Source of the DNA: Nitrospirota bacterium
GTDB lineage: Bacteria; Nitrospirota; UBA9217
Assembly (NCBI GenBank): GCA_963740085.1
Contig: CAVUCU010000004.1
Span: 224,001 to 288,000 of the forward strand
Direction: 5' to 3'
Length of the DNA stretch: 64,000 nucleotides
The notes under the pieces were generated by a model, which saw nothing but the letters and a program-made list of their open reading frames with translations, had not been told where the DNA came from and searched no databases. The translations under genes and the position numbers were made by a program. The first letter of the stretch is position 1. Each line of letters starts with the position of its first letter. Shown here piece after piece: positions 16,206-41,605 of the stretch.

Positions 16206-16227
16206 AATGGTTTTGTTGAGGTGATTC

Positions 16228-17587: not shown

Positions 17588-17603
17588 GAGCGAGGAGACG
17601 ACT

Positions 17604-18727
17604 ATGTGCGATAGCGGTGATTTCCGCGAAGGGGCCTCCGTTACCAGGACCGTGCCGCTCGCGGAGGCGGTGGGATTGGTGCTGGCCCACGATGTGACGG
17701 AGATACGCAGGGGTGAGTTCAAGGGCCGGGCATTCAGGAAAGGCCACATCGTCCGGAGCGATGATATTCATCGCCTCCAGCAGATCGGCAAGGAGCACCT
17801 CTATGTCCTGACCATCGGTGCTGACGAGATGCACGAGGATGATGCCGCGCTGACGCTCGCCCGCGCCCTGATCGGCGATGGTGTTGCGATGCCGGAGGAA
17901 CCGAAGGAAGGCAAGGTAAGGCTGGTCGCTGCCAGGGACGGATTGCTGACGATCGACCGGGATGCCCTTCTGCAATTCAACCTGCTCGGCGACGTTATCT
18001 GTAGTACGCTGCACAACAATACAGTGGTGAGAAAAGACCGGGTCATTGCCGAGACAAAGGCTGTTCCGCTTGTGGTGAAGCGAACGGTCATCGACCAGGC
18101 AGTGTCCCTGGCCGGGAGTGGTGTTGTCACGGTGAAGGAGATCAGGAAACCGAAGGCAGGCGTCGTGATCACCGGCAACGAGGTTTACCACGGAAGGATA
18201 CAGGACAGTTTCGCGCCGGTCATTGCAAAAAAGATCGAGGCCTTCGGCGGCGAGATCATCGGCACGTATCTTGCCCCCGATGACAGGGAGATCATTCAGC
18301 GGCGTCTGCGGGAACTGCTGGACGCGGGCGCCGACCTTCTGATCACCACAGGCGGCATGTCCGTTGACCCTGACGATGTGACGCGGTTCGCCATCCGCGA
18401 CCTCGGAGCGACGGAGCTCACCTACGGTTCACCCGTCCTGCCGGGCGCGATGTTTATGGTGGGGTACCTTGAGAAAGCACGGTAGTTCGGAGTTTGGAGT
18501 TCGGAGTGAAAACCCAAAACATCCGAACTCAAAGCTCAGGGCCGATCCCCATTCTGGGGATCCCCGCGTGCGGGATGTATCACAAAACAACTGTCCTCGA
18601 TCTTATCCTTCCGAGGGTGCTTGCCGGTGAACGGATCGGCAGAAGAGAACTCGCAGAACTGGGACACGGAGGGCTCTGTCTCCATTGTACTTCGTGTCAG
18701 TATCCGGTCTGTCCATTCGGAAAGTGA
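17604..18727 (+). CDS. MoeA-like molybdopterin-binding protein; reading frame broken near 18475 next to a palindromic insert
   Basis: AVGLVLAHDVT, VITGNEV, TTGGMSVDPDD, YGSPVLPGAMF; C-terminus IPILGIPACGMY...GGLCLHC..CQYPVCPFGK in ORF 18494..18727. Confidence 0.8.
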
Positions 18728-18924: not shown

Positions 18925-18965
18925 GGATGTCAAACTACAGGAGAGACAACAATAGGAGGCCCGCG

Positions 18966-20033
18966 ATGAACGGCACAAGGAACATCATAGTACAGTATGG
19001 TAAGAAAAGCATATGGACCATTGCTGCATTCACCGCCGTGGCCTTATGTGCAACGGCCCTCTTTGCCGCTAACCCGGACGAAGAGTTGATGAACAGGGCC
19101 AAATCCATACTCGGCCCGCTCCCTGCGTCAATGCCCTCCCGGGACAATCTTATCACCCCCGAGAAGGTCAAGCTGGGAAACGTACTTTTTTGGGAACCGA
19201 GGATATCCGTTGACGGAACGATAAGCTGTGCCAAGTGCCACCCTATGGGTCTTTACGCCGTCGACGGCCTCCGAAAGTCGGTGGGGAATCACTGCAAGGA
19301 AAATCCCAGAAATGATCCGACCATCTTTAACGCAGCGTCTCAGATCTCGGAGCACTGGATCGGCAACAGAACGAGTGTAGAGGACCAGGCAAAACAGGCC
19401 CTCGTTGGACCACCATCGTATGGCATGCCGAGCTATGAGTCTGTTGAGAAGATCCTCAAGGGGATACCAGGGTATGTAGAGATGTTCAAACAGGCTTTTC
19501 CCGGAGAGAAAGACCCTGTAACCGCGGACAACTTCGCGAAGGCCGTCGGCGCCTTTGAACGGACGCTCGTGACACCGTCAGCCTTCGATGATTTCATGAA
19601 AGGCAATACCGCAGCGCTTACGAACCAGCAGAAACGGGGACTACAGATCTTTCTCGGTGCGGGGTGCGCTACATGCCATTTCAGCCCCTATCTGGGCGGT
19701 CAGATGAACCAGAAGTTCGGTCTTTTCGAGCCATATGAGAAATACACAAAAAGCAAGCCGGTAGATGAAGGAAGATTCGTGGTCACGAAAAGTCCTTCGG
19801 ACAAATATGTGTTCAAGGTCCCGGTACTCAGGAATGTAGCGGAAACCCCTCCGTATTTCCACGACGGGTCCGTGGATAAGTTGGAGGACGCGGTCGTGAT
19901 CATGGCCAAGATCCAGCTCGCGAAGGACCTCACCAAAGATGAGGCGGGAGATATCGTGGCCTTTCTCAAGTCACTGACCGGGACGATCCCCGAGGCAGCG
20001 CTTAAGGTGCCGATTCTGCCGCCGGTAGATTGA
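18966..20033 (+). CDS. Diheme cytochrome c peroxidase (bCcP/MauG family)
   Basis: Signal peptide; CAKCH and CATCH; FKVPVLRNVAETPPYFHDGS. Confidence 0.92.
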   Translation: MNGTRNIIVQYGKKSIWTIAAFTAVALCATALFAANPDEELMNRAKSILGPLPASMPSRDNLITPEKVKLGNVLFWEPRISVDGTISCAKCHPMGLYAVDGLRKSVGNHCKENPRNDPTIFNAASQISEHWIGNRTSVEDQAKQALVGPPSYGMPSYESVEKILKGIPGYVEMFKQAFPGEKDPVTADNFAKAVGAFERTLVTPSAFDDFMKGNTAALTNQQKRGLQIFLGAGCATCHFSPYLGGQMNQKFGLFEPYEKYTKSKPVDEGRFVVTKSPSDKYVFKVPVLRNVAETPPYFHDGSVDKLEDAVVIMAKIQLAKDLTKDEAGDIVAFLKSLTGTIPEAALKVPILPPVD

Positions 20034-20477: not shown

Positions 20478-23400
20478 ATGAGTGTAAGAAAACCATGCTC
20501 ATCACCATTTGGGATATTTCAGAGATCCGTATTGATCGTCGGTTTCCTGTCCGGTATTTTCCTCGGGACTAATGTCCAGGCATTTACCGTGAACGTGATC
20601 GACGACACGGGCAGCTCCGTTCCGAACTACGAATGGACCGTGCAGGAAGACAATACCTATGATGCCGTCGCAAATGTCGGGATCAAGGGCAATCCGAACA
20701 CGCTCTCGACATCGATCCATAAAAGCCATGCCCATGTGCTGGCTGTGGGTTCCACATCAACGGTCGACCTTCCCTCAACGAACCGCTATTATATTTCAGC
20801 GAAGGCCCCGGGATACACGCTGAATGGCGACATGGTAAAGGTGGGCCAGTCGAGCGTCACGATCCTTCTTCACAAAAACCCGATACCCATGGCACAGGTC
20901 AGCGTGCTTGTCTTCGAAGACAATGCGCCGATCAACGGCGCTCCCGATATACCGGGTGAGAGGTCTTTGCCGAATTTCAAGATCTATATCTATGACCAAG
21001 CCGGCCAGATGTCGACCGACGGCTTCGGAAACCCCATCGGGACCACGTATGACCTCAATACCGGAGATACCATAACGATAGGCGCAGGGTATGTGATTAC
21101 GACGACGGCCGGCGACGGCACGACCGGCAACGCACTGATCCCAAACCTCGCGCCGGGTAAATACGGGATCCGGGCCGTACCGAATGACGGAAGACCCTGG
21201 GTTCAGACGGCAACCATAGAAGGTACGCCCGGGATCGATACATGGGTCATGGCCGGGGAGCCGCCGTATAATACGGAAGCCGGCTTTTTCGGGGTCCATG
21301 CGTTTATCGGGTTCGTACTGCCGACCTCTTATTATCAAGGGATCGGGGACAGCACGACAAATCAGTTCCGGGCATTATTGCCCGGCGAAACAGCGGGAGC
21401 GATCACCGGTCAGGTCATGATCAATCATATGAACCGGCCGCCGCTTCAAGCAGGCCTTGTCCCGAGTATTCCCGTTCCGGAGGCCTATGTGGGGCTGACC
21501 GATGCGGGAAACGGCAACACGCAGGTCTACGCCGCAAAATGCAATCCCGATTCTACCTTTACCATTGCCAATGTACCCCCCGGCACGTACACGTTGACCA
21601 TGTGGGACTTTCCTCTTGATATGGTCATGGATTTCCGTACCGTCGTCATTCCGCCAACCGGCGGGACCGCGGATCTGGGGCAGATCCCGGTTGTTGCGTG
21701 GTTCGGCAGGTATGAGGGAAGCATCTTCAACGACGTCAACAAGAACGGCGTACGGGACCCTGGAGAAGCGGCGATCCCGAACCAGCTCGTCGATATTCGG
21801 TTCCGTGACGGTTCTATCTATTGGGCCAACACGACCGATTCCAGCGGAGAATTCTTGAATAGTGAGGTGTTCCCTTTCTTTAAATATATTATTGCCGAGA
21901 GTGATTATACGCGGTTCAAACCCACAGGCGCCACCGTGTATGTGGACAAGGGGGGGCCCATGTCTTCACCCTGGCCGAATCCGCTCTACCCGCTTCTGGA
22001 AACCCGCACCGATACCGGTCCCTTCCCTTTTCTTCTCGAGGGGATGATGCTGTACAACGGCAGTAACTCCAAGATCGACTGGGGCAGGGTGCCCTATGCA
22101 CCCGGCGAGAACGGCGGCATTGTCGGTGTTGCCTACCTCGCAACAACCCGTGCCCAGGCCGACCCGAGGCTTTCCGTTGCCGAACCATGGGAGCCGGGCA
22201 TTCCCGACGTAACGATAAATCTCTACAAAGTGACCGGCTATGACAGTAACGGGAAACCGATCACGCAGGGCCCGATCAATACCTACCAGACCGACTCCTG
22301 GGATAAGAATCTTCCGACGGGCTGTAAATCCGCAATGCAGGCAGCGGGACTTTCGCTCAATCCACTGGGAATCCCGATGGATACCTACATAGACTGCGCA
22401 GAGACCATTCCTTTCTGGAACCAGACCAAACCCGCCGTGTTCGACGGAGGTTATGCATTCTCCACCGACGCGCAGGGGAACCAGCTTCCTGCCGGCGAAT
22501 ATGTTGTTGAGATGATCATTCCTCCGGGCTATATCCTCGAGAAGGAAGAGGACGTGAACGCGATCGTGTCGGGAGACACGTACACCCCCTCGGTGCCGCA
22601 ACCGGCGCTTCTCCCGGCAGAGTGCGTCGGGGCAGACCATCTGGTACCCGCTTTTCACAGCTCAGACAGCGGCCCGAACGGCATTCCCCAGGGCAGCCCG
22701 ATCGATGTTTCAAGTCCGGTGTTTCCCTTTGTTGGGCAAATTAGGCCTCTTTGCGACAAAAAGCTTGTCCGGCTTGCAGACGGACAGAACGCGGCAGCGG
22801 ATTTTCATATCTGGACGCGTGTGCCGCCGGCGGGCAGGATCGTGGGGCTCGTGACCGATGACCTTACCCCGGAGTTCCGCAGGGGCAGTCCGAGGCTCAA
22901 CGACGTCATCGGCATACCATTCCTTCCTATATCTTTCCAGGACTATACCGGACACGAAGTGGCGCGTACGTATTCCGATGAGTGGGGTCAGTACAATGTC
23001 CTCGTCCCTTCAACCTATTCGGTCAATGTTCCGTTGCCGACGGGTGTAAGCCCGAATATAGTGCAGATCTTTGTGAACCATCGGGGGTTCGATCCGTCGC
23101 ATCCCGATCCGTACTTTAATCCCGGCTACCCGGTTGTCGAGGTCCATATGGACGTCTGGCCCGGGAAAACGACCTATGCGGATACGCCTCTCATCCCCAT
23201 CCGTCCGAATTTCAGCGCCCTTGATTGCGATCTTCCTGACAAGACGCCGATCGTGTTCGAAGTGAACGGGCCTGCAGGCGGGCCCTGGGTAGAAACAACA
23301 CCGGGAACAATCACGATCACTTCAGTGGGCAAGCAATTGTTAAGCGACACGAGCACCAGGGACTACGGCTTCGGAAGTTCCGCGGGAAATGTCTTTGCCA

Positions 23401-25616
23401 CTCCTGTCGGCAACCCTGTGGACAGCATGTCGACCCTGAAGCTTCAGATATCGAGCTGGGCGGATGGAGCGATCACGTTGACCGGAAAGCTCGAGGACGG
23501 CGTAACGCCTCTTCAGAACGGCGACTACCAGCTGACGATCAGACGTGACGACAGCCGCCGGATGAGCATAGCTGCTGCGACGCTCCATGTGGGTGTTCCG
23601 GCGAGCAAGGTCAAACATGTTGCGACCGGCACCGGCGCTATCCAGGCAGCTATCGACAGCGCCGCTGACGGCGACCTGATCCTGATCGCGCCCGGACTCT
23701 ATCCGGAGAACATCATCATGTACAAGAACGTGAAGCTCCAGGGATACGGCGCGGCCTCCACGGTCATCAATGCAGGCTACTTTACACCGGACAAGCAGAC
23801 TGCCTGGCTCGCGCTGCTCAACAGCATCACGAGCGCTCAGTCCAGCACATTTTACATCATCCCCGGAGAACAACCGGACTTCTTCCTTGAGCAGGGCTCG
23901 GGCATCCTGGTGCTCGCGAGAGAGGGAGACTTTACCCAGCTTGATCCGGCCAGAATAGACGGATTGCAGTTCACTGGCGCAAATCTCGGCGGAGGCATCT
24001 TTGTCAACGGGTTCGGCCATTATCTGCAGATCACGAACAATAAAATTACCGCCAACCAGGGGACCGTGGGCGGAGGCATCCGGATCGGGAGTCCGTCGCT
24101 CGTCAGCCCGGGTGATCAGGCGGGCTCGAGTTTCTACGAAAGCTCACATAACGACAACATCACCATCAGCAACAACCTGATCATAACCAACGGGTCCAAC
24201 GGCCAGACGATCGCGAGCGGAGGCGGCATTGGTCTGTTCACCGGCTCCGACAATTATGTGGTGAGCGACAGCTGGATCTGCGGCAATTACTCGGCCCTTG
24301 CCGGAGCTGCAATAGGGCAGCAGGGATTGAGCGACCATGGCCTGATCAGGAACAATTCGATCATCTTCAACCAGTCCTTTGACGAAGGCGGCGGGATCTT
24401 CCTGTCCGGAGAAACGCCGATCGCCGGCCTCGTATCGAACGCCACGGCAACGCGAGTGCTTCCTTCGCCCCTCCTGCTGTCCGCGGGAGCGGGAAACGCC
24501 GTGATCACCGGCAACCTGATCCAGGGGAACAACGGCGGCAATATGGGCGGCGGCATCACGCTCTTCAACTACAACGGTCTGGATGTTCTTTCCAATCCGA
24601 CGGATACGGCGGCATGGTACAAGACGGAGATCTACAACAACCTGATCGTCAACAACATTTCCGGCGCATACGGGGCCGGGATCGCGCTCTTCAATGCGCT
24701 CGACACGACCATCGTGAACAACACGATCTCAAATAACGACTCCACGGCCACAAGCGAGTTTGCCTTCGGTATCGTTCCCAACCCGGCGGGACTGGTGGAT
24801 CTCTTCCTGCCGCCCACAGCCATCACAGGGCCGATGCCCGCTGGCATAGGTATCCAGCCCATCAGCGCCGATCTGGTCTCGGCGATGTCTGCCACGGTCG
24901 CTTCCGGTTACGGCGCATTCGGCGGCACCATAACACCGGTTCTGGTCAATAATATCGTCACCAACAATTTCTCCTACTTCTGGAACGGGTACGACCCGCA
25001 AAACAGCCTGTCTGCCCTCACACTCTCCGGTGTATGGGACATGGGGGTATTCGGCGTACCAACGGCAAAGCTGAACCCCCGGTTCTCGCTGCTCACGAAT
25101 GCAACGGGATATGATCCTTCCAATATCTCCGGGGACCCGAAGTTCATGACCAGCTACAGGAACAACCTCAATGCCGCACAGGGAGGGGCGACCCTGGGCA
25201 ATTTCGTGAGCATCATCTATACTCCCATGACGCTTGTCGGCAACTATCACATCCAGCGAGTTTCACCGGCACTGGATTCCGGCGATTCGACCGCTCTCAG
25301 CACCTGGTATCCTTACCTGAGCCTTGATATCGATACGGAACCACGGCCCATGGGCTATACCGTTCCTGCGAAGCCGGACATGGGCGCTGATGAATTGAAC
25401 TCGAAAGGGGACGTCAATTGCGACGGCGGTGTGACCGCGCAGGACGCCCTGCTGGCGCTCCGGTACGTCGTGGATAATACGCAAACGCTGGCATGCCCGC
25501 AGAATGCCGACGCGGCTCCGCTGACGCCCACGGGCAAGCCGATCGGAAACGGAGTAACGAATCTGAGCGATGTGCTCGCTATTCTGATGCGAGCAACGAA
25601 TCTAGTGATATGGTAG
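20478..25616 (+). CDS. 1712-aa secreted protein: SdrD-B/Ig-like repeats, IPT/TIG-like, right-handed beta-helix, choice-of-anchor-Q-like segment, C-terminal dockerin
   Basis: Signal peptide; GSIFNDVNKNGVRDPGE; IQAAIDSAADGDLILIAPGLYPEN; repeated GGGI..N..I.NN; SPALDSG..PDMGADE; GDVNCDGGVTAQDALLALR..NGVTNLSDVLAIL. Confidence 0.8.
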   Translation: MSVRKPCSSPFGIFQRSVLIVGFLSGIFLGTNVQAFTVNVIDDTGSSVPNYEWTVQEDNTYDAVANVGIKGNPNTLSTSIHKSHAHVLAVGSTSTVDLPSTNRYYISAKAPGYTLNGDMVKVGQSSVTILLHKNPIPMAQVSVLVFEDNAPINGAPDIPGERSLPNFKIYIYDQAGQMSTDGFGNPIGTTYDLNTGDTITIGAGYVITTTAGDGTTGNALIPNLAPGKYGIRAVPNDGRPWVQTATIEGTPGIDTWVMAGEPPYNTEAGFFGVHAFIGFVLPTSYYQGIGDSTTNQFRALLPGETAGAITGQVMINHMNRPPLQAGLVPSIPVPEAYVGLTDAGNGNTQVYAAKCNPDSTFTIANVPPGTYTLTMWDFPLDMVMDFRTVVIPPTGGTADLGQIPVVAWFGRYEGSIFNDVNKNGVRDPGEAAIPNQLVDIRFRDGSIYWANTTDSSGEFLNSEVFPFFKYIIAESDYTRFKPTGATVYVDKGGPMSSPWPNPLYPLLETRTDTGPFPFLLEGMMLYNGSNSKIDWGRVPYAPGENGGIVGVAYLATTRAQADPRLSVAEPWEPGIPDVTINLYKVTGYDSNGKPITQGPINTYQTDSWDKNLPTGCKSAMQAAGLSLNPLGIPMDTYIDCAETIPFWNQTKPAVFDGGYAFSTDAQGNQLPAGEYVVEMIIPPGYILEKEEDVNAIVSGDTYTPSVPQPALLPAECVGADHLVPAFHSSDSGPNGIPQGSPIDVSSPVFPFVGQIRPLCDKKLVRLADGQNAAADFHIWTRVPPAGRIVGLVTDDLTPEFRRGSPRLNDVIGIPFLPISFQDYTGHEVARTYSDEWGQYNVLVPSTYSVNVPLPTGVSPNIVQIFVNHRGFDPSHPDPYFNPGYPVVEVHMDVWPGKTTYADTPLIPIRPNFSALDCDLPDKTPIVFEVNGPAGGPWVETTPGTITITSVGKQLLSDTSTRDYGFGSSAGNVFATPVGNPVDSMSTLKLQISSWADGAITLTGKLEDGVTPLQNGDYQLTIRRDDSRRMSIAAATLHVGVPASKVKHVATGTGAIQAAIDSAADGDLILIAPGLYPENIIMYKNVKLQGYGAASTVINAGYFTPDKQTAWLALLNSITSAQSSTFYIIPGEQPDFFLEQGSGILVLAREGDFTQLDPARIDGLQFTGANLGGGIFVNGFGHYLQITNNKITANQGTVGGGIRIGSPSLVSPGDQAGSSFYESSHNDNITISNNLIITNGSNGQTIASGGGIGLFTGSDNYVVSDSWICGNYSALAGAAIGQQGLSDHGLIRNNSIIFNQSFDEGGGIFLSGETPIAGLVSNATATRVLPSPLLLSAGAGNAVITGNLIQGNNGGNMGGGITLFNYNGLDVLSNPTDTAAWYKTEIYNNLIVNNISGAYGAGIALFNALDTTIVNNTISNNDSTATSEFAFGIVPNPAGLVDLFLPPTAITGPMPAGIGIQPISADLVSAMSATVASGYGAFGGTITPVLVNNIVTNNFSYFWNGYDPQNSLSALTLSGVWDMGVFGVPTAKLNPRFSLLTNATGYDPSNISGDPKFMTSYRNNLNAAQGGATLGNFVSIIYTPMTLVGNYHIQRVSPALDSGDSTALSTWYPYLSLDIDTEPRPMGYTVPAKPDMGADELNSKGDVNCDGGVTAQDALLALRYVVDNTQTLACPQNADAAPLTPTGKPIGNGVTNLSDVLAILMRATNLVIW

Positions 25617-25681: not shown

Positions 25682-26980
25682 ATGCGAATAAAATCTCGTA
25701 TCATTTACACGGGTCTTGTCCTTCTGCTTCTGGGTGTGGCCATCCCCGCGTGGGCGGCCTCGGTACAGGTGCAGTACCCCTGCGATATCGATAATCAGCC
25801 GACCGGGAATTTCCCCGGTCCCGAGGATGTCGACTGGAATGGCGATGGCATTATCGACATGCTGGTGTCCAACGGAACGGCCACAGCCTCATGCCCTGCG
25901 ACACTCAAATACATGAGACTTGGCGGGACTGACGGATATTGCCGGATGGCCGACGGGCTCGATCTGTATTCTTTCGGATTCATTGATCTGACAGGCATGC
26001 CGGAAGACACCGTTCTGGATCAGGGATTAAATCACGCCAATATTCCCGCGCCGACGATCGTCATGAACGAAGGTGACGAGGTTTATCTCAACCTGTCGAA
26101 CCTGGGGATGCTCCTTCGTCCTGATCTGTTCGATCCGCACACGGTCCACTTTCACGGGTTCCCGAATGCCGCGACGGTCTTCGACGGCGAACCCATGGCG
26201 AGCTTCGGCGTCAGGCCGACTTCCACCATTACCTATTACTACCATCCCGTGGATCCGGGCACCTACATGTACCATTGTCATCAGGAAGCCACGGAACACA
26301 TGGAGATGGGCATGCTCGGGAACCTTGTGGTACGCCCCGCGCAGAACGGGACTTCCTATATCTACAGCGGCCAGACCTATACGAAGTTTGCTTACAACGA
26401 CAGAGACGGCCGCACGGGATATGATGTAGAGGCGATGATCAAGTACTCTGACATGGACCCCATATTTCATCAGCGGGACGAAATCTTCCAGCCGCCGCGC
26501 TTTGCCGAATTCGAGGCGCGCTATTTTTTACTGAACGGCCGGGGATATCCCGATACCGTCAATACCGGGGAGATCACGAACGGCACGAATAATTACGCTG
26601 CCCAGAAGATGAATTCCAAGATCACGATCAACCGGACGGCTCCTAGTGGCCAGCGGACCATACTCATCAGACTCATCAATCTTTCGGTCCAGCATTTCAC
26701 GAACGTAGAGGCCCCCGGGTTGGGTATTAAAATTATCGCCAAATGCGCGAGGCTTTTGCGCGGTCCGAACCCGACGGACGGCACAGGGCCGGGAGCGGGC
26801 AACGATACAAGCTACTATGTCACTTCCGCGCTTGTGGGACCGGGAGAGTCGATCGATCTCCTCATCGATACGAACGGTGTGGCCGCCGGGACGTATTATC
26901 TCTTTTCGCGAAATCTGGACCAATTGAACAACGATCTGATGGACCGCGGCGGAGTAATGACGGAAATCACCATTATCTGA
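25682..26980 (+). CDS. Two-domain multicopper-oxidase subunit A (T1 Cu plus four His in domain 1)
   Basis: GGAGG RBS, signal peptide; HTVHFHG and YHCHQEATEHMEMGM; domain 2 lacks His motifs; EF-hand-like DWNGDGIID. Confidence 0.85.
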   Translation: MRIKSRIIYTGLVLLLLGVAIPAWAASVQVQYPCDIDNQPTGNFPGPEDVDWNGDGIIDMLVSNGTATASCPATLKYMRLGGTDGYCRMADGLDLYSFGFIDLTGMPEDTVLDQGLNHANIPAPTIVMNEGDEVYLNLSNLGMLLRPDLFDPHTVHFHGFPNAATVFDGEPMASFGVRPTSTITYYYHPVDPGTYMYHCHQEATEHMEMGMLGNLVVRPAQNGTSYIYSGQTYTKFAYNDRDGRTGYDVEAMIKYSDMDPIFHQRDEIFQPPRFAEFEARYFLLNGRGYPDTVNTGEITNGTNNYAAQKMNSKITINRTAPSGQRTILIRLINLSVQHFTNVEAPGLGIKIIAKCARLLRGPNPTDGTGPGAGNDTSYYVTSALVGPGESIDLLIDTNGVAAGTYYLFSRNLDQLNNDLMDRGGVMTEITII

Positions 26981-27015
26981 TCCAAGATGCGAGTATCGTC
27001 TGAACGGAGGCAATC

Positions 27016-28495
27016 ATGATGCTGTTTAAGGATATTTTAAGAATTCTGCTGCTGATCATAGGTCTTGCGGTCATCCCGCTGTCACAGGCGGACGCCAAGG
27101 TCCACGGACTGAGCGGTACGTCGCCGACCCCTGTATTCAACTTCATTGCCTCGGCGGCACATATCACCACGCCGGATGGCGGCAGCCTCCTGTTCTGGGG
27201 GTTCGGCGACGCTTCGGCGGGCATACCCCAGTATCCGGGCCCGACTTTGATCGTGAATGAAGGGGATACGGTCACCATCAACCTGACCAATAACCTGGCC
27301 GAGCCTGTATCAATGACTTTCCCCGGACTCGATGTCACCTCGCACGAGGCGCCTCTCTTTCCCATGGGCGACCGGACGATGCTCAATTCCGTGGTCTCCG
27401 AGGCTGCGCCGAACGGCGGTACCCGGACCTACACATTCACGGCAAGCAGACCCGGCACGTTTTACTATCAGAGCGGCTCCAATCAGCCGATCCAACTGCG
27501 CATGGGACTCTTCGGCGCCATCGTTGTGCGTCCGGCCCAAAATGGAACGGCAATGACCATCAACGGCAATGATTACCGGTTCCTTCGGGGACTCTATACA
27601 TTGGCCACGGGCACAACCGGAACCGGCGTCACCAAGACGTTCACCCAGTTCGCCTACGATGACGGCGATGGTTCGACAGGATATGACCGGGAATACCTTT
27701 TTCTTTTCAGCGATATGGACCCGGCGTTTCACAGCTGGATGGAATTCGGCGGCGCTTACGATATCAGCAAGTGGAAGGCCAATTACTGGTTCATCAACGG
27801 CCGCTGCGCACCGGATACCATGGATATGCCGAATGTCGCGAATCTGCCGAACCAGCCTTATAATGCTCAGCCTTTCATGCACCCCGGCGAAGTGATCCTG
27901 ATCAGGTATGTCGCCATGGGCAGGGACTTGCACCCCCTTCACACGCACGCCAATCATGTGCGGGTCGTTGCTACTGACGGGAATCTGCTGAGCACAGCGG
28001 CTACGGGCACGACCGGCGCCGATCTGTCCTGGCTGACATTTACCCTTACCCAGTTCCCGGGAAAAACGCTTTGACGGCACTTTCACCTGGACCGGCAGTG
28101 AACTCAACTGGGACATATACGGCCACAAACCCGGCGACCCCCTGGAACCTTACGAGTACCTTGCCGACCACGGCAAACAGTTTACGCCGAACCTGCCGCC
28201 CATCAATGACACGAACGGACAGCCCGTATCCCAGGGTCTGGCGCCTGCGCAGGCATTTCCTGTGCTTCAAGCGTCAATCGAGACCATCATAGGGGGGCTC
28301 TTCTGGAGCGGCAGCCCCTATCTGGGGTCTTCGGCGCCGGTCGTACCCGGGGAGGGCGGATTCAACCCCTTTAACGGCTACTTCTATATGTGGCACAGCC
28401 ACGCTGAGCGGGAAATAACGAACAACGATATTTTCCCGGGAGGGATGCTTACCATGCTGGGCATCCTGCCATGGTCGGCACCCATATCCGAATAA
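27016..28495 (+). CDS. Two-domain multicopper-oxidase subunit B (T2/T3 His in domain 2, no T1 Cys); +1 indel near 28069
   Basis: Domain 1 has PVSMTFPG and YYQSG (no ligands); domain 2 has HPLHTH and YMWHSH; after the shift the frame reads FDGTFTWTG... into ORF 28262..28495. Confidence 0.8.
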
Positions 28496-28507
28496 CGGAG
28501 GTCGTGA

Positions 28508-29749
28508 ATGATGAATAAGACAAACCTGAAGATAATCTGTATGACCTTCCTGCTTATCGCCGGCGTTGCTGTCATGGCGGATGTGTCGTCGGCAGCGACC
28601 TACACTCTCCGGGCCGATAGGGCGAATCTCACCATGCCCGATGGTACGGTAGTCCCTGTCTGGGGATTTGCCGATGACGTCGCAGGAGCCGGTACGGGTA
28701 CGGTAATGGTCCCGGGCCCCCAGTTGATCGTTCCCGCATTGGACACGACGCTGACGATCAATCTGACGAACAACCTGCCGGTGCCCATTTCTGTGGACAT
28801 CCCGGGTCAACGGTATCCGAACGGCGCGACCCCGACCTATGTAGATGACGGGAAAGGCAATCGGGTAATGTCCTTCACGAATCACATCGCCGCGAATGGA
28901 GGAACAGCGTCACTCACCTTCGCAAACCTCAGACCCGGCGTATTTCTGTATGAGAGCGGCACCAATCCTGCCATGGAGATACCCATGGGACTTTATGGGT
29001 CGCTGATAGTACGCCCGCCTACCGCGGGTCAGGCATACGAACTCAATCCTCCATACAATGTGGACTCAACCTTTGCCAACGAGGCGGTTATTCTGCTGAG
29101 CGAGATAGACCCTCGATTCAACGACTATGTCGATGTCAATGGCACGACAGTCGACGCCGCGAACAAGATCAACTATTCGATAAGCTATGCCCCGATGTAT
29201 TTTCTCATCAACGGGAAGGCTTATCCGCAGACCTCGGACATCTCGGTTCCTCATGGGCAGCGGACGCTCCTGCGCCTTTTGAACGCCAGCGGGCGCAACG
29301 TCATGCCCACGTTCCAGGGAGAGGTTCCCACGGTCATTGCCGAGGACGGCTATTTGCTTAATTACCCCAGGCGCGAATTTGCACCCTCCCTGACCGCGGG
29401 CAAGACACTGGACATTATTTCGGCGCCGAGCGCAACAGGGTATCATGCTTTCTATGATCGTCGTCTGGGCATGTCAAACGCAGGTGTTTATCCCGGCGGC
29501 ATGATCACCTTTCTCGGGGACTTGAACTGCAGCCCGTTAAAAGGAGACGTGAACGGAGACGGCAGAATATCACCTATCGACGCTTTGACTGTCCTCCGTG
29601 CATTTGTCGGGGGAACGACCAATACACTTCCTGCCGGCGCCGATGTCTCTCTCGATCCCGCTTCAGGACTTCCCTGCGGGAATGGGACGATCGATCTGGT
29701 CGACGTCCTTATGCTGCTTCAAAAGGCTACAGGGTTCAACCCTTATTGA
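28508..29749 (+). CDS. Two-domain cupredoxin-fold subunit C lacking Cu ligands, with C-terminal dockerin
   Basis: PGPQLIV, LTNNL, FLYESG..MGLYGSLIVRP, FLINGKAYP; GDVNGDGRISPIDALTVLR..NGTIDLVDVLMLL. Confidence 0.8.
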   Translation: MMNKTNLKIICMTFLLIAGVAVMADVSSAATYTLRADRANLTMPDGTVVPVWGFADDVAGAGTGTVMVPGPQLIVPALDTTLTINLTNNLPVPISVDIPGQRYPNGATPTYVDDGKGNRVMSFTNHIAANGGTASLTFANLRPGVFLYESGTNPAMEIPMGLYGSLIVRPPTAGQAYELNPPYNVDSTFANEAVILLSEIDPRFNDYVDVNGTTVDAANKINYSISYAPMYFLINGKAYPQTSDISVPHGQRTLLRLLNASGRNVMPTFQGEVPTVIAEDGYLLNYPRREFAPSLTAGKTLDIISAPSATGYHAFYDRRLGMSNAGVYPGGMITFLGDLNCSPLKGDVNGDGRISPIDALTVLRAFVGGTTNTLPAGADVSLDPASGLPCGNGTIDLVDVLMLLQKATGFNPY

Positions 29750-29777: not shown

Positions 29778-30269
29778 ATGAGGGATCAAAGGGAGCAAAC
29801 AGGGTCTTTGAAAGAGGCCGTGAAAAACCGACCGGTTTTAATTGCCGCGGGACTCATGATGATTGTGGGTCTGATCACCCAGAGCGGCTGCGTGAGAGTA
29901 AAACCCGTTGATCAGGATACAACTCATCAGCTGACTCCTGCGGAATCTGCGGGCATCGAGATCGTGAGGATCCATCCCTCAGTGGGTGGGCAGATGCTTG
30001 ATCTTCGATATCGCCTGATCGATGTGGAAAAGGCGAAACGCGCCATGAACCGGCAGGCAAAGATCTATCTAATTGATCAGGCAAGCGGTACGAAACTTCC
30101 GATCCCAAACATGGCAAAGGTCGGCAAACTGCTGCAGCGACCGGAACAGACCGGGGGAGACAAGATATTCTGGGTCTTTTTCAGCAATCCCGGGGGCATG
30201 GTCAAGACGGGAGCAAAGGTAACTCTGGTGATCGATGAGATCCGCATCAAGGATATCGTTGTTCAGTAA
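29778..30269 (+). CDS. Conserved-looking exported hypothetical protein (possible lipoprotein)
   Basis: Hydrophobic leader ending QSGC; beta-rich GIEIVR..LDLRYRLID..FFSNPG..VKTG.KVTLVI. Confidence 0.6.
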   Translation: MRDQREQTGSLKEAVKNRPVLIAAGLMMIVGLITQSGCVRVKPVDQDTTHQLTPAESAGIEIVRIHPSVGGQMLDLRYRLIDVEKAKRAMNRQAKIYLIDQASGTKLPIPNMAKVGKLLQRPEQTGGDKIFWVFFSNPGGMVKTGAKVTLVIDEIRIKDIVVQ

Positions 30270-31890
30270 TCGCAGTACCTTGAGCCGCAGATTGATCGTC
30301 GCGGTCGCATGCATGGCGGTCTTCTTCTCACCTGGGGCCAATGCATGGTGCGGGGAAATTGCTCAAGAGCTTCTTAAAGAAATAGAAAGCAATGGTCCAA
30401 TCCATGAGTATGCGGTCATTATCAAATTGAGGGGCGTCGTCGGCTACCAGTCGCTCAAGGCATCTGTCGAACAGATGGCTCGCCACGAGCGGGTAAAAAA
30501 AGTGGTCCAGGAAATCAAGGCTGCGACCGACAGATCGCAGCAGAATTTGCGGTCGCATCTCGTCAACCAGGAAACGCTTGGCAAGGTAAGGAACGTAAAG
30601 CACTTCTGGATAGTCAACGGAATAGCCGTAACAGCAACGCCGGAGGCCATAAAAGAACTGGCGTCGCGGGCTGATGTTGAGGAAATTGTGCCGGACAGGA
30701 TCATCACCCTCGGCGCACCGGCCGTTGCTTCCAGCGCGGCTCCTGCTGGATGGAACCTGGACAGGATCGGGGTCCATCCTCTCTGGAACGCGGGATACAC
30801 AGGGCAGGGCGTAGTGGTCGCCACCATGGATACGGGAGTTGATATCAATCAACCTGAACTTGCATCGAAATGGCGTGGAGGAGTGAACAGCTGGTTCGAT
30901 CCCAGCGGAGAACACGGGACCCCCGCTGATGTGAGCGGCCACGGGACCCAGACCATGGGCATCATATTGGCGGGGAATACAGTGGACCATCTCATCGGTG
31001 TTGCTCCTGATGCTAAATGGATTGCGGCCAAGATATTTAATGATGCAGGTGTATCTTTTTCCAGCATCACGCATCAGGCATTTCAGTGGGTCCTCGACCC
31101 TGACGGAGACCCGAATACGAACGACGCTCCCGATATTGTTAACTGCTCCTGGGACCTGAGCAGCAGCGGGACTGTCACCGTTGTGAACCTGGAGTTCCAG
31201 CCTGACGTTCAGGCACTTCAGGCAGCAGGCATTGCGGTCGTCTTTTCAGCGGGCAATGCCGGGCCGCTTTCAAATACTTCGGTCAGTCCGGCGAACTATC
31301 CGGAATCGTTCTCGGTTGGAATGACGGACAGTACGGACATGATAGACCCGCGGAGCAGCAGAGGGCCGTCGGCATTCGACGGAACATCTCTCTATCCGAC
31401 GGTGGTTGCCCCCGGGGCCGGTGTTACGACGACTGACCTCTGGTTCGGCTCAGCGGACCTGAGCACCGTAACGGTGAACGGGTCATCATTTTCCGCTCCC
31501 CACGTTGCGGGCGCAATGGCGCTGCTGCTGTCAAGCAACCCGACCCTGACTGCCGGGCAGATGGAGGACGCGATAAAGCCGACTGCCTGGGACCTCGGAA
31601 CTACGGGGCCTGACAATGATTATGGGTACGGATTTCTGGATGTAGAACGGGCGGCAAGACAATTGAATATTCTGCAGCCGGGCTCAGTCGGTGATGTGGA
31701 CGGCAACGGAGCGCTGGATCTGAATGACGTTTTAATTGATTTAAGGGCGGCGGTCGGGTTTCCGACGAGCACTGTTGAAATGGACAGGATCAAAGCCAGA
31801 GGTGATGTATATCCTCCCGGCGCGCCGGATAATATGATCACGCCGGCGGACGCGCTGACGCTTCTCCGCATGTACGTGGGGGCACACTAA
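30235..31890 (+). CDS. Subtilisin-like S8 serine protease with I9-like propeptide and C-terminal dockerin
   Basis: Triad motifs MDTGV, GHGTQTMG, GSSFSAPHVAG; oxyanion AGN; GDVDGNGALDLNDVL..GDVYPPGAPDNMITPADAL; start codon uncertain. Confidence 0.88.
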   Translation: MRSASRISLFSNRSTLSRRLIVAVACMAVFFSPGANAWCGEIAQELLKEIESNGPIHEYAVIIKLRGVVGYQSLKASVEQMARHERVKKVVQEIKAATDRSQQNLRSHLVNQETLGKVRNVKHFWIVNGIAVTATPEAIKELASRADVEEIVPDRIITLGAPAVASSAAPAGWNLDRIGVHPLWNAGYTGQGVVVATMDTGVDINQPELASKWRGGVNSWFDPSGEHGTPADVSGHGTQTMGIILAGNTVDHLIGVAPDAKWIAAKIFNDAGVSFSSITHQAFQWVLDPDGDPNTNDAPDIVNCSWDLSSSGTVTVVNLEFQPDVQALQAAGIAVVFSAGNAGPLSNTSVSPANYPESFSVGMTDSTDMIDPRSSRGPSAFDGTSLYPTVVAPGAGVTTTDLWFGSADLSTVTVNGSSFSAPHVAGAMALLLSSNPTLTAGQMEDAIKPTAWDLGTTGPDNDYGYGFLDVERAARQLNILQPGSVGDVDGNGALDLNDVLIDLRAAVGFPTSTVEMDRIKARGDVYPPGAPDNMITPADALTLLRMYVGAH

Positions 31891-32809: not shown

Positions 32810-32911
32810 TTACTCCCGGGTCGCGTACGCCGTCGCATGATCGGTCGACGGTGTGCGCTTCTCAGGGTTTTATTGCCATGTATTTTTTGTCCGGCTATTG
32901 GAGGTAGTATC

Positions 32912-34195
32912 TTGAAAATTAAGTCACTGTTCTTCGTTGTTTGCTTCTCGTTGTTTTTATCGTGCTGGCTGTCTCCGGAGGCTGTCGCGTCGCCCAGCGT
33001 GACCATTGCCCCCGCGTCCGACAGTGTTTATGCGGTTATGGGGAACGATTTTTCAGACGCCTCGGGCATGGATATCACCATTCGCTACGATCCCTCTGCG
33101 CTGGCCGCTCCCCAGGTCGTGCAAGGAGGTCTTATCGGCGGGGCCCTCATGGCTATCAATGCCTCAACACCGGGAATGATCCGCCTGGCGCTCGTCCGTG
33201 TTACGGCGATCAAAGGGTCTGGAGCGATCGCAACGATAACCTTTACCCGTTTGAAGAGCACCGGTGCGGACATCCTGTCCCTCGTTTCCTCGGCAATAAA
33301 CACTGCGGGCCAAAGCATCCCGGTAACGTCACAGGTGGTGAATTCCGTGAAGACAGCGGACAGCGGCGCATCAACAACGGACCAAAAAACCGGGCAATCG
33401 ACAGCAGGGACCTCTCCGTCGTCGGAGTCCGGAACTCCCGGTACAACGGCAACAGCGCCGACGGGAATAGCAGGGATAGTGGTTCCCTTGCCGGGCGCAC
33501 CCGCCTCCGAGGTCCAGAGCGCAAGTTCTTCAACGGGTCAGCCCGCTCCTGATGAACAGCAGCCCGCCACTGATGAGATCGTTTCCCCTGAAGCAGCCAA
33601 AGAATCACCAGGTGAAAAGGCCGGCAAACCGGAGCTCAAGAAAGTCAAGATGTTTCCCAGTGTTCTGGAAAAATTCAGGGATTTTAAGGGCGCGAAGACA
33701 CCTGAGGCACTTATGGCTTTGTTCGATGTGCGGGATAACAATCCGCAACAAGACCCGCCTATCGTCCTTTCGAACGGCAAGGCTACGGTTAAAATCGTCC
33801 TTGAACTCGATTCCCAGGGAAAGAATAACAATTTTCTGCTTGATGGCGCAAGCCTGGTTTCTCTGAAAAAAAAGGAGAAGCATTTCTGGACCGTGGAACT
33901 TTTGCCGGATTCGAGGACCTATGAAGCGACAGTCAGCGTGCCCCGGAACGATCAGTGGTCCGTTATCCCCTTGACCGTTGCCCCGCCCATGGATGTCAAC
34001 ATAGACCCATCCTCCAGCAGACTGACCGAAGCGGATTTTAAAATGTATCTCAAGGAAAAGGGGACCGCCAAGACCCCCCGTTTTGACCTGAACAAAGACG
34101 GACGGCGCGATTACATTGATGATTATATTTTTACGGCCAATTATATCGTTCAACGTGACAGTCATTCGAAGAAGGAGATGAAGGTCCGAAAGTAA
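32912..34195 (+). CDS. Secreted cohesin-domain protein with S/T/P linker and C-terminal EF-hand/dockerin-like loop
   Basis: GAGG RBS plus TTG; SGMDITIRYDPSAL...GMIRLALV....GSGAIATITF; FDLNKDGRRDYIDD. Confidence 0.75.
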   Translation: MKIKSLFFVVCFSLFLSCWLSPEAVASPSVTIAPASDSVYAVMGNDFSDASGMDITIRYDPSALAAPQVVQGGLIGGALMAINASTPGMIRLALVRVTAIKGSGAIATITFTRLKSTGADILSLVSSAINTAGQSIPVTSQVVNSVKTADSGASTTDQKTGQSTAGTSPSSESGTPGTTATAPTGIAGIVVPLPGAPASEVQSASSSTGQPAPDEQQPATDEIVSPEAAKESPGEKAGKPELKKVKMFPSVLEKFRDFKGAKTPEALMALFDVRDNNPQQDPPIVLSNGKATVKIVLELDSQGKNNNFLLDGASLVSLKKKEKHFWTVELLPDSRTYEATVSVPRNDQWSVIPLTVAPPMDVNIDPSSSRLTEADFKMYLKEKGTAKTPRFDLNKDGRRDYIDDYIFTANYIVQRDSHSKKEMKVRK

Positions 34196-34523
34196 CATTT
34201 GTCCCGCGTGCCGAAAACCGTAACGAGGGGGTGGGACATCATGGGAATTGAACTACTCTGGAGCCTGTTATGCTCACCCTGTCGAATTTCGGCAGGGTCA
34301 CGAGTGGTTCCCATAATCTTTTGCAGAGAAGGGGTCTGTTGAGGTCATATTTTATCATGGAGTTGCTTCCGATCTGCTTTGTTGCCCCTCATGCTATTTC
34401 CATAGATTGCGATCTGATATTTCTTCCAAAATTCACGGGCAGCATCACGGTATTATTTATAAAGAAGATCATCGATCAGGACGCAATTCCTGGTCCAGGT
34501 CTTCTTGCCTGTCGGGGTGGCTC

Positions 34524-35111
34524 ATGATAATAAAAACGGTCCGGATCTTTGTCTGCATGGTCGCGATACTGTTCATGCCATTGACCGGGGCCCTGAATCG
34601 TGCGCTGGCTGATGAACAGGGTTATCAGCGAAGCGTAGAGCAATACACAGTACCCGATGTCGTTCTCGTGAACCAGAACGGAGCGAAGGTCCGTCTTAAG
34701 GACCTTCTGCAAACCGACACGCCGGTGGTCCTGGATTTCATATTCGGGACCTGTACGACCATCTGTCCCATCCTTTCGGCCGGGTACGTCAACTTGCAGC
34801 ATAAGCTCGGCCCGGATTCCCGGGCGATCCGGCTCGTTTCGATCTCCATCGATCCGGAACATGATACACCGAAGGTCATGAACGCGTATCTGAAACGGTT
34901 TCGTGCGAAGCCGGGATGGGATTTTCTGACCGGCTCCCGTGAAGATATCGACAAGGTGATGACGGCGTTCGGCGCTTACATTCAGAACAAGATGTCGCAT
35001 TACCCGTTGACGCTGATCCGCTCCCCTGAGGACGGCTCATGGATCAGGCTCTTCGGCCTCATGAGCACCGCGGAATTTATGAACGAGGTCCAGAAGGTAA
35101 AGAAGAAATGA
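34524..35111 (+). CDS. SCO/SenC copper chaperone (copy 1)
   Basis: LVNQNG, DFIFGTCTTICP (CxxxC), SISIDPEHDTP, W.FLTG, conserved His (MSHYP). Confidence 0.9.
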   Translation: MIIKTVRIFVCMVAILFMPLTGALNRALADEQGYQRSVEQYTVPDVVLVNQNGAKVRLKDLLQTDTPVVLDFIFGTCTTICPILSAGYVNLQHKLGPDSRAIRLVSISIDPEHDTPKVMNAYLKRFRAKPGWDFLTGSREDIDKVMTAFGAYIQNKMSHYPLTLIRSPEDGSWIRLFGLMSTAEFMNEVQKVKKK

Positions 35112-36815
35112 TCGGTGAACGGGGGAAAAAGAAGCATCGCGGTGAGCAGATCGTCCTGCACGCAGGGGTCCTTTGCCTGACACTTCTTTTCTGTGCAGCC
35201 TTCGCTCTTGCAGCCGAAAAACCAGGTGCTGATGCCGCCCATTCGCAGCGCGAGATCCTTCAACTGGGGGAGCGGATGTATCGCGAGGGGCTTCTGCCCT
35301 CCGGAGAGCCGATGCAGGCATTTGTAAAAGGAGACCTCCCCGTTTCGGGGACGACCTTTACCTGTGTAACCTGTCATCAGCGCAGCGGGCTTGGATCGAC
35401 CGAAGGGGGTGTTGATACGCCTGCCACGAACGGCCCCGAACTCTTGAAGCCATTTCAGATGCGCTATGCACGTTACGGTATGAACAAATCAACCTATTTC
35501 CAAATACCCATCGAGCGGCCGGCATATACCGATGAAACACTGGCAGAAGCGATCCGGGGCGGCGTCGATTCCCGGGGGCGGGTCCTCGATTATGTCATGC
35601 CTCGTTACCTGCTTGATGATGAGGACATGGCGATCATGATCTTCTACCTGAAGTCACTTTCAACGCATATTTCACCCGGCATTTCAGACACGACCTTCAA
35701 GTTTGCGACCGTCATGACGGATGACGTCAGCCAGGAAGACCGCGATGCGGAGCTCGCCCCTTTGGTAAATTTTATCAATATCAGGAACAATCATTCAGCA
35801 TTTTTAAAAAAACTATCCAACAGCGGAAAACTGCGTATGGCTGGAAATTTGATGCCTCCCCCCACACAGGCGATATCGTTATCGATATGGTTGTTGAAAG
35901 GTCCACCGGAAACGTGGCGCAGCCAGTTGGAGGAGTACAATCGCAAGGAGCCGGTATTCGCCCTGATCGGCGGAATAACAAAAGGGGAATGGAAGCCGAT
36001 CCACCAGTTCAGTGAGGACAACCACATCCCGTGTCTTTTTCCCAACACCGATTTTCCGGTGATTTCACGGACCGACTGGTACACCTATGTACCTGTCAAA
36101 AGGGTACTACCAGGAGGGCGAGGCTGCTGCCCACTATCTCAACAACAAGGGGGAGCTCTTGAAGGGCGGGCCGATCGTCCAGATCGTTCGCGATTCGCGC
36201 GAGGGGCGGGCGCTCTCAATGGGATTTCAGGAGACCTGGCGGAATCTCGGGCATGAAGCGTTGGTGACGCTCATCCTGAAACCGGGGGAAAAACTGACCG
36301 AGGACGTTATACAGAAATTGCTGGCAAAGAAGAAGGCCAGAGCTGTCGTCCTCTGGGATGGCTCCGCGGCGCCGTCGGAGCTGGAAACGCTGGCAACGGT
36401 CAAGAACAGGCCGGAGATGGTTTTCGTTTCTTCAAGCTATCTCGGCAAGGATCTGTGGTCGCTGAAAGAACAGGTCCGCGATTTCACTTACGTAACGTAT
36501 CCTTTCAGGTTGCAGGACAAGCTTGATCAATGGGACTCCTCGCTGGTCCTTTCAGCCAACATAACGAAAGAAGCGAATGCAGCATATTCCATTCAAGAGA
36601 TATTGACCCAGGCACTCATAGATATGAAAGGTAATTATTACCGCGACAATTTTCTGGATGTTATCGGGATGATGGATGATCTGGAGGTCCCCTTGTATGA
36701 ACGCCTCAGTTTCGGCCCGGGACAGCGCTACGCCTCGAAGGGGTGTTACATCGTTCAGCTCTCAAAGGGAGAAAAACCCGAACTCGTCAGGAAAAGTGAC
36801 TGGGTAATTCATTGA
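35108..36815 (+). CDS. Monoheme cytochrome c fused to a periplasmic-binding-protein-like domain (copy 1); +1 indel at about 36087
   Basis: CVTCH, VMPRY (possible axial Met); continues in ORF 36087..36815; paralogue 2 reads accttgtac where this copy reads acctatgtac. Confidence 0.78.
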
Positions 36816-40589: not shown

Positions 40590-40683
40590 AACAATAAGCC
40601 GGATAAAAGAAGATTAAAGGTCCGCCGATGCCAATAACCTTCAACCAAGTCTCAGGTGTGACGGCTTGAGAAAGGAAATTCCT

Positions 40684-41301: not shown

Positions 41302-41365
41302 AACACCGAAAATATATTATAAATCAGAAAAAAGAGACGAAAGATGATACCGGCAGACTAAAATG

Positions 41366-41500
41366 TTGAGAATCTCCTAAAAAGTCGAATTTAACCGCAG
41401 AGCCGCAGAGTGGCGCCGAGGAAACCTCTTAATCTTTAAGATCTATTTCTCCGCGTCTCAGAGTCTCGGCGGTAGATTTTTCTTTTTACGACTTCATCAA
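41366..41500. mobile_element. MITE-like element with inner 9-bp-repeat palindrome
   Basis: ttgagaatctcctaaaaag ... ctttttacgacttcatcaa terminal IRs; inner accgcagagccgcagag ... tctcagagtctcggcggt. Confidence 0.65.
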
Positions 41501-41605
41501 ATATTTGACGATAAACAGACGGAACATTCGAAGAAGAGTGACGCGCATGCACATGACCGCGGGTTTGGCAGCGCAGGCAAACAGATATGAAAGGAGAAGT
41601 AAAAT

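Follow-up and report, generated by a model that had tools for sequence, protein, structure and literature searches.

Two-domain multicopper oxidases that carry their type-1 copper in domain 1, known as 'type C', assemble as homotrimers with a trinuclear copper cluster at each of their three interfaces. The six-domain oxidases of the ceruloplasmin type form a pseudo-threefold ring with a single trinuclear cluster, located at one domain interface. The Mnx oxidase of Bacillus (MnxG, MnxE and MnxF) is an example of a multicopper oxidase that depends on hetero-oligomer formation, and the accessory subunits of Mnx are not known to be cupredoxin paralogues or to give cluster ligands. To our knowledge, every multicopper oxidase chain carries the whole ligand set, either in a two-domain chain that forms homotrimers or in a single chain of three or six domains. 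We describe here a locus in which this set is divided between genes. In a stretch of 64,000 nucleotides from a Nitrospirota bacterium (lineage UBA9217; assembly GCA_963740085.1, contig CAVUCU010000004.1, positions 224,001 to 288,000 of the forward strand), hereafter the window, three adjacent genes at 25682-29749, which we call A, B and C, encode paralogous cupredoxin proteins with complementary sets of copper ligands. We consider it fairly probable that A, B and C together make up a single secreted, hetero-oligomeric multicopper oxidase, which would most likely be a 1:1:1 ring with pseudo-threefold symmetry and six cupredoxin domains. Whereas an oxidase of the ceruloplasmin kind is a single chain with several type-1 sites, this bacterial enzyme would consist of three gene products with one type-1 site.

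The closest solved relatives of A and B are two-domain oxidases, i.e., 3g5w (the blue copper oxidase of Nitrosomonas europaea), 3gdc (from Arthrobacter) and 2zwn (the metagenomic mgLAC), with nitrite reductases coming next. Like A and B, these oxidases are made of two cupredoxin domains. Each of their chains presents H-x-x-H-x-H and HCH-x5-H-x4-M in domain 1 and H-x-x-H-x-H and H-x-H in domain 2, and contains all eight cluster histidines together with the type-1 site, whereas none of the A, B and C chains holds more than four cluster histidines. Two insertions also distinguish the proteins of the window from their solved relatives: one of about 105 amino acids in B, without counterpart in 2zwn, and the RPDLFD segment of A. 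A trimer with unequal chains is known in Nitrosopumilus maritimus, where Nmar_1354, a solved match of A (E-value 1.4e-10), forms an alpha-alpha-alpha' heterotrimer with trinuclear sites at the interfaces of its two-domain units (PMC11761707, PDB 9cck). It resembles the A/B/C set in being a two-domain oxidase trimer whose chains are not equal. By contrast, its chains are the product of one gene and the odd one merely lacks the dangling cupredoxin. In the literature that we searched, which leaves most subscription journals outside, no heteromeric subunit model was found for a two-domain oxidase, the Nmar_1354 trimer being the sole match.

The same cassette has already been noted in the iron oxidiser Sideroxydans lithotrophicus ES-1, as a cluster that is co-expressed but uncharacterised. 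He et al. (2017; PMC5566968) reported in this strain three tandem multicopper oxidase genes accompanied by a mofC-like gene and a gene for a copper chaperone, and described the triplet as non-homologous to known metal oxidoreductases. An identity of G or A with OmpB or OmpC of Geobacter was considered through the literature, in which OmpB is likened to MofA and the ES-1 triplet is said to lack homology to OmpB. Keffer et al. (2025; PMC12016527) found the proteins Slit_1812 and Slit_1814-1818 to be higher on magnetite than on Fe(II)-citrate, ascribed canonical oxidase motifs to Slit_1817 and Slit_1818, and presented Slit_1816 as a larger protein with adhesin-like and polysaccharide-lyase-like domains and no oxidase motifs. 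The supplement of PMC12016527 gives lengths of 515, 520, 2873 and 170 amino acids for Slit_1818, Slit_1817, Slit_1816 and Slit_1815, respectively. Matched by eye, one Slit_1817 peptide of this supplement carries a B-type motif (HPFHFHGNH), the Slit_1816 peptides resemble the beta-helix of G, the giant protein encoded just before A, and the Slit_1815 peptides resemble the small protein encoded just after C. The Slit_1812-1818 cluster is like the window in having three cupredoxin proteins, small hypothetical proteins, SCO1/SenC and a cytochrome; it is unlike the window in that C and G are one protein there, as in 4 of the loci surveyed below. In the portions of PMC5566968 and PMC12016527 accessible to us, the function of the Slit cluster is left unknown and no heteromer is proposed. 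Slit_1353 is a monohaem cytochrome and has no relation to this cluster.

Gene A (25682..26980, plus strand, with 25682 as its likely start) encodes a two-cupredoxin subunit of 432 amino acids, matched by Pfam Cu-oxidase_3/_2 and Cu-oxidase. Its domain 1 contains PHTVHFHG (26135-26158), which gives the type-1 His153 and the cluster His156 and His158, and HCHQEATEHMEMGM (26273-26314), which gives the cluster His198 and His200 and the type-1 Cys199, His206 and Met211; both motifs align onto the domain-1 motifs of 3g5w and 3gdc. The first-pass annotation had reported an HTVHFH motif and an HCH loop in domain 1 of A and no histidine motif in its domain 2, and all of this was recovered: past residue 200 there is no H-x-H, and the only later histidines are 206, 263 and 338. 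The spacing that it gave for the type-1 loop, HCH-x4-H-x4-M, has to be corrected to HCH-x5-H-x4-M. Immediately before the type-1 histidine, A also contains the seven-residue insertion LRPDLFD, when compared with its solved relatives. In this A-specific insertion before His153 (26114-26134), Arg146, Pro147, Asp148, Leu149 and Asp151 are invariant, as are Glu202 and Glu205, located between Cys199 and His206 (26282-26296). Judging from the alignment, the acidic residues around the type-1 site of A may constitute a site for a cation substrate.

B presents the complementary half of the ligand set. Its domain 1 is free of ligands, with EPVSMTFPG and YYQSGSNQPIQLRMGL at the motif positions (YYQSGSN), while its domain 2 contains HPLHTHANH (27931-27957) and WHSH (28391-28402), the latter with its cluster histidines and with serine replacing the cysteine. 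HPLHTH and WHSH, which align onto the domain-2 motifs of 2zwn and 3g5w, had been assigned to domain 2 of a B without ligands in domain 1 from the first inspection, and this description holds. Domain 2 of B is interrupted by the insertion of about 105 amino acids (residues ~326-432; 28067-28390) that has no counterpart in 2zwn. In this insertion, tryptophan, aspartate and histidine residues are conserved (W360, D368, D386 and H387, in the numbering of the B protein of a same-genus genome, G005).

C (28508..29749, plus strand, 413 amino acids) is a two-cupredoxin subunit without copper ligands. Its only histidines are at 126, 249 and 313, and neither H-x-H nor HCH occurs in it. Its profile matches that of A over 319 columns (E-value 2e-28) and that of B over 292 columns (E-value 2.6e-57) in profile-profile comparisons, and these matches make C a full two-domain paralogue, nearer to B than to A. 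At its end, Pfam Dockerin_1 matches residues 345-383 (29.8 bits, for a cut-off of 22.9; ~29540-29719), in agreement with the dockerin-bearing, ligand-free subunit initially described. In other lineages, the C tails carry Big_9/cadherin-like repeats, DUF11, He_PIG, Laminin_G_3 or BACON, a variability that fits an anchoring role. Hence, two cupredoxin domains per chain are found throughout (Pfam Cu-oxidase_3 with Cu-oxidase or Cu-oxidase_2 in A and B; Cu-oxidase_3 in C), the type-1 copper site of multicopper oxidases (histidine, cysteine, histidine and axial methionine) is present in A only, and no single polypeptide contains eight cluster histidines, since A has four, B four and C none; the set of eight is complete only for A and B together. 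Membership of NirK was tried and rejected for the three proteins, TIGR02376 scoring 36.3 (A), 29.1 (B) and 32.7 (C) bits for a cut-off of 296.3, and no NCBIfam model came near its cut-off for A, B or C.

The division of the ligands is found well beyond the window. A scan of species-representative genomes (one per species) gave 598 pattern matches, 577 of them encoding a relative of A, and we studied the best 80 of these 577, the open reading frames of each locus being classed with profiles from four seed loci. The joint alignment, from which pieces shorter than 300 amino acids were dropped, comprises 83 sequences of A, 78 of B and 73 of C, which come from 83 loci spread over many phyla. In A, the eight domain-1 ligand columns are kept in 83/83 sequences; the four cluster histidines of domain 2 are all absent. 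In B, the first two domain-2 cluster histidines are found in 78/78 sequences and the last two in 76/78; the two misses come from a frameshifted gene (L024) and from a contig end (L072). Serine occupies the domain-2 cysteine position in 75 of the 78 B sequences, the domain-1 cysteine position in 77/78 of them, and the cysteine position of C in 73/73, with no cluster histidine in any C. Conservation of the ligand losses in homologous triplets had been named beforehand as a point on which the idea could fall, and the pattern stands in this alignment. As far as sequences can tell, the ligand split is a conserved pattern and not a local decay, and the ligand table would speak against three functional clusters.

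Larger protein searches gave the same picture. The A profile retrieved 5322 hits at an E-value of at most 1e-10 among 8000 scored candidates; in the best 120 of them, HCH-x5-H-x4-M is present in 120/120 and HxxHxHG in 119/120, the hit without this first motif being a fragment of 241 amino acids, and 4 have some later H-x-H. With the B profile, a search of 1.84 billion representatives returned 926 at an E-value of at most 1e-30. Among the best 150 of these, 105 span all four histidine positions and 103 of the 105 have all four. As for C, HCH occurs in 0 of the best 120 hits and a stray H-x-H in six.

The carriers of the cassette among the loci studied are Nitrospirota, Desulfobacterota, Geobacter, Oryzomonas and Geomonas; Gallionella, Thiobacillus, Sulfuricella, Rhodoferax ferrireducens, Thioploca and Methylocaldum; and Acidobacteriota, Verrucomicrobiota, Hydrogenedentes and Phycisphaerales. 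One locus (L090), in an assembly titled Candidatus Bathyarchaeia archaeon, has a fusion of G to A followed by B, C and the small protein on a 42-kb contig, and represents either a gene transfer or a mis-binning. At closer range, among 41 related genomes (G000 included), a strong A match occurs in 4, and B and C again adjoin A in three other genomes of this set.

Gene order and phylogeny also bind the three proteins together. Synteny was counted in 82 loci with A, leaving out the window and L019, a second copy of the G005 locus L016. B comes next after A in 77/77 loci with room for it, B and C in 72/72, and G is present in 70/70. In 9 loci, G is joined to the N-terminus of A, and in 4 to the C-terminus of C; both kinds of fusion join neighbours, the orders G-A-B-C and A-B-C-G being cyclic permutations of each other. 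In the tree, A, B and C each form one clade (support of 1.0, 0.955 and 0.989, respectively), in a test that is not fully independent because the classes were set by profile score.

A view of how A and B may fit together comes from structure prediction. We modelled residues 10-374 of the 374-amino-acid A open reading frame of G005 with residues 28-489 of its B, with a 61-row alignment for each. The interaction prediction score from aligned errors (ipSAE) of the pair was 0.91, 0.90 and 0.92 in three runs, for 0.00 in the best of three controls. The mark used is reached by 116/157 solved complexes and by 2/215 mismatched pairs, a calibration that is only rough here since the alignments were user-supplied. 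At least 85% of the contacts are common to the runs, and the partners have a predicted local distance difference test (pLDDT) score of at least 87. The confident interface takes in residues 101, 103 and 145 of A and 309, 311 and 459 of B (G005 numbering), i.e., six of the eight predicted cluster histidines. No B residue below 182 belongs to it, which means that domain 2 of B sits against A. The interface also includes B residues 360-367, 411-416 and 420-427, all of them within the insertion that 2zwn lacks, and several of the lowest-error pairs involve residues 367, 412, 413, 426 and 431 of this B-specific insertion. Within the limits of a predicted model, these contacts cannot be explained as a memory of solved homotrimers. 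The convergence of the A and B histidines, on which the first-pass annotation had staked its proposal, is borne out for the apposition of A domain 1 and B domain 2 and for six histidines, and does not extend to the remaining two, which are not listed. Together, A and B probably complete a trinuclear cluster only where the two different subunits meet.

Several points weigh against this reading and have to be set beside the evidence above. The 80 loci were picked by their likeness to A. No A::B or B::C fusion occurs among the 82 loci. Two B representatives (P0263 and P0284) lack one or two of the four histidines. In the model, His143 of A and His457 of B (G005 numbering) lie outside the list of confident contacts, and part of the A+B score may come from likeness to solved homotrimers. 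The model covers the A+B pair alone, and the place of C in a ring is argued from synteny, paralogy and tails. Moreover, B is broken in the window as assembled, and the metagenomic contigs that restore its frame (X1 and X2, see below) are shallow (depth of 2.9-5.1) and differ at 3-4 nearby bases, so that they may derive from a close strain.

This break is where the single gene product assumed at first inspection gives way, HPLHTH and WHSH being in different frames. The first part of B, in frame 1 (27016..28066, plus strand), contains domain 1 and the start of domain 2; this frame ends at a stop codon at 28072-28074, and the remainder is open in the +1 frame (28037-28495), the second part (28067..28495, plus strand) giving the B-specific insertion and then WHSH. 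Read across the break with a four-letter step, B has 492 amino acids. DNA alignment with G005 places the extra base within GGGAAAAACGC (28060-28069, plus strand). The B of G005 is intact, with 489 amino acids, and is colinear over the break (PGKTFDGTFTW for PGKRFDGTFTW in the window), and contigs of two public soil-metagenome runs (X1 and X2) span the site with a net of one base fewer. Runs X3 and X5 give no coverage of the break. Other genes of the window are also split into overlapping frames (13919-16205, 35039-36815 and 41924-45546). From the intact B of G005, the shorter X1 and X2 contigs and these other split genes, we infer that an indel error of a long-read assembly is clearly the more likely origin of the frameshift, rather than a dead gene. 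In G005 (L016, 1132-7636), B and C are intact, G is in six open reading frame pieces and the N-terminus of A lies in another frame; the frame breaks affect different genes there than in the window. The G000 assembly comprises 3.46 Mb in 7 contigs.

The best-surviving alternative is that B is a true pseudogene in the genome of the window and that the oxidase is dead there, whatever the family does elsewhere; we regard this as unlikely, while giving it appreciable weight. The stop codon and the +1 shift needed to reach WHSH are real features of the assembled sequence, the frame-restoring contigs differ at several nearby bases and perhaps belong to another strain, and the strong A match in only 4/41 related genomes indicates a cassette that can be dispensed with. 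On the other hand, the genes for G, A, C, the small protein and the subtilase are unbroken, each half of B is open apart from the break and runs colinear with the B of G005, and the presence of at least three other split genes in 64 kb and of a G in six pieces in G005 would fit long-read indels.

A second alternative accepts A and B as the catalytic pair and removes C from the ring: the third place would be taken by a second A or B, by a higher-order assembly, or by nothing in an open A-B heterodimer, and C would be an adaptor to G or the cell surface. The predicted model covers the A-B interface only, C is nearer to B than to A, its tail is the variable, adhesin-like part, and C is fused to G in 4 loci, all of which would suit an adaptor. 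However, C retains its two cupredoxin domains and accompanies A and B in 72/72 loci with room, and, following the ligand table and the known geometry of two-domain oxidases, filling the place with another A or B would leave an interface short of its full histidine set. We therefore hold this arrangement to be distinctly improbable, and less so only than a third one, in which the three proteins act separately, A as a stand-alone, nitrite-reductase-like homotrimer with a type-1 and a mononuclear site and B and C as non-catalytic cupredoxin-fold surface proteins: domain 1 of A does match copper nitrite reductases (E-values of ~1e-10 to 1e-7) and the top NCBIfam hit of C is a nitrite reductase (32.7 bits), but these NCBIfam scores are far under the cut-off of 296.3, nothing would then explain four histidines in domain 2 of every complete B with a ligand-free domain 1, and domain 2 of A has no conserved histidine at the cluster positions to complete a site in an A homotrimer, which leaves this possibility very small.

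In the hetero-oligomeric oxidase that we favor, domain 1 of A would provide the sole type-1 copper (His153, Cys199, His206 and Met211) and four of the trinuclear-cluster histidines, and domain 2 of B the remaining four, so as to form a single oxygen-reducing cluster at the A/B interface. Electrons would enter at the type-1 copper of A and pass through the His-Cys-His bridge to the cluster. The ring would follow the order B-A-C, with C as a copper-free spacer that closes it and bears the lineage-specific attachment, i.e., a dockerin here, cadherin-like repeats elsewhere, or a whole G, and would be coupled on the cell surface to G, a conserved beta-sandwich/beta-helix protein of about 1,700 amino acids. 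The N-termini of A, B and C, inspected by eye on the translations, have Sec-like signals without twin arginine; export by this route would imply that copper is loaded outside the cytoplasm, which is consistent with the SCO1 genes nearby. Maturation would then rely on SCO1-type chaperones and perhaps on the subtilase. As for the substrate, our leading guess is a metal outside the cell or mineral-bound Fe(II)/Mn(II); a metal substrate is hinted at, and no more, by the magnetite induction, the taxa of the carriers and the invariant Asp148, Asp151, Glu202 and Glu205 of A.

Taken jointly, these elements permit a wider reading, which we put forward tentatively and judge somewhat unlikely to hold in full. 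The A/B/C set would be a free-living evolutionary intermediate between the homotrimeric two-domain oxidases and the single-chain six-domain oxidases of the ceruloplasmin kind, in which the gene was triplicated and, ahead of any fusion, two clusters and two type-1 sites out of three disappeared. Beyond that, the set would form the catalytic head of an extracellular machine of ancient origin and horizontal spread (comprising G, A, B, C, the small membrane protein, the subtilase, SCO1 and the MofC-like cytochrome), used for solid-phase Fe(II)/Mn(II) oxidation or for passing electrons to extracellular oxygen in iron-, sulfur- and metal-cycling bacteria of many phyla. If true, a textbook enzyme would gain a new quaternary design, in which a single cluster is built from two gene products next to a copper-free paralogue, and this design would give a concrete picture of a possible origin of the six-domain oxidases. 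The cassette has a wide distribution, with relatives of A encoded at no fewer than 577 places in species-representative genomes. Its wide spread, its strict co-inheritance with the conserved G and its magnetite induction in an iron oxidiser qualify it well as a candidate extracellular redox system, so far unrecognised, of sediments, soils and groundwater. Cultured carriers include Sideroxydans lithotrophicus ES-1, Oryzomonas japonica Red96, Desulfopila sp. IMCC35006 and Rhodoferax ferrireducens.

The conserved unit extends beyond the A/B/C triplet, and adds to it G, a small membrane-anchored protein and a subtilase. G, A, B and C adjoin in that order on the plus strand, followed by the last two genes. 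G (20478..25616, plus strand) is a secreted protein of 1712 amino acids according to gene calls and Pfam, which matches SdrD_B, fn3_3 and Beta_helix. It has beta-sandwich modules in its N-terminal part and a right-handed beta-helix at about residues 1040-1640 (pLDDT of the model of 88.4), and ends with a weak dockerin match (21.1 bits, under the cut-off of 22.9). In 52 homologues from many phyla, 317 positions of G are at least 90% conserved, and the dockerin tail is not; this conservation is far above what is expected for a surface adhesin. The conserved positions include Cys616, Cys640, Cys716 and Cys759, and His81, His274 and His1281. A fold search with the beta-helix of G returned polysaccharide lyases and epimerases (E-values of ~6e-5 to 1e-3; template modelling (TM) scores of 0.2-0.4), and we read it as a generic beta-helix. 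Protein atlas clusters for G are named only hypothetical, beta-helix or SdrD-like. An identity with NosD was rejected, TIGR04247 scoring 22.7 bits over 45 residues for a cut-off of 300, with no NosD among the fold matches listed.

We surveyed the neighbours of the cassette in 84 sources, i.e., the window and loci L016-L098. The small conserved protein (29778..30269, plus strand), which begins with a membrane helix or lipoprotein signal and continues with an Ig-like beta-sandwich, directly follows C in 67/84 sources. Its model (pLDDT of 85.5) found no solved fold match at an E-value of at most 0.001, generic Ig-like hits only. The subtilase (30235..31890, plus strand), a Peptidase_S8 protein with an I9 propeptide (Pfam E-value 2.8e-47), has homologues in 50/84 sources, and its tail gave no Pfam match. 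Within 9 kb, SCO1/SenC occurs in 22/84 sources and a MofC-like cytochrome c and periplasmic-binding protein in 21/84. In the window, all of these lie on the plus strand, with two SCO1/SenC copper-chaperone genes recognised by Pfam (34407-35111 and 36829-37407), a first MofC-like gene in two overlapping frames with cytochrome c and periplasmic-binding matches (35039-36815) and a second one with a periplasmic-binding match only (37386-39086). The cohesin-domain protein (32837..34195, plus strand; Pfam Cohesin, 28.1 bits for a cut-off of 24.1) has homologues in 6/84 sources only. At the gene level, the window thus combines Dockerin_1 on C with a Cohesin gene 3 kb downstream, and, from its sequence, this protein is the likely docking partner of the C and G dockerins.

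Directly upstream of G, at 18927-20033, is a di-haem cytochrome c peroxidase/MauG-family gene; the flanks of the other 83 sources gave no homologue of it, which places it probably outside the cassette. Further downstream, the window contains a second copper-oxidase island (40666-50155) that resembles the mofA-mofB-mofC layout reported by He et al. (2017; PMC5566968). It starts with an FKBP_N protein (40666-41301), followed by three overlapping open reading frames (41924-45546) with PhsA/CueO-like and weak Cu-oxidase_2 matches, which are probably one large oxidase gene broken by frameshifts, and then by a Big_1 protein, an SCO1/SenC protein (47766-48425) and a second MofC-like protein (48422-50155). 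Sulfite-oxidase-like molybdoenzymes flank the region (11655-12890 and 51746-52873), one of them with a twin-arginine translocation (TAT) signal. Finally, a 2Fe-2S/molybdopterin dehydrogenase set with XdhC and MobA-like genes is located at 13470-18485, and the overlapping frames at 13919-16205 correspond to its molybdopterin-binding subunit, of the xanthine-dehydrogenase family.

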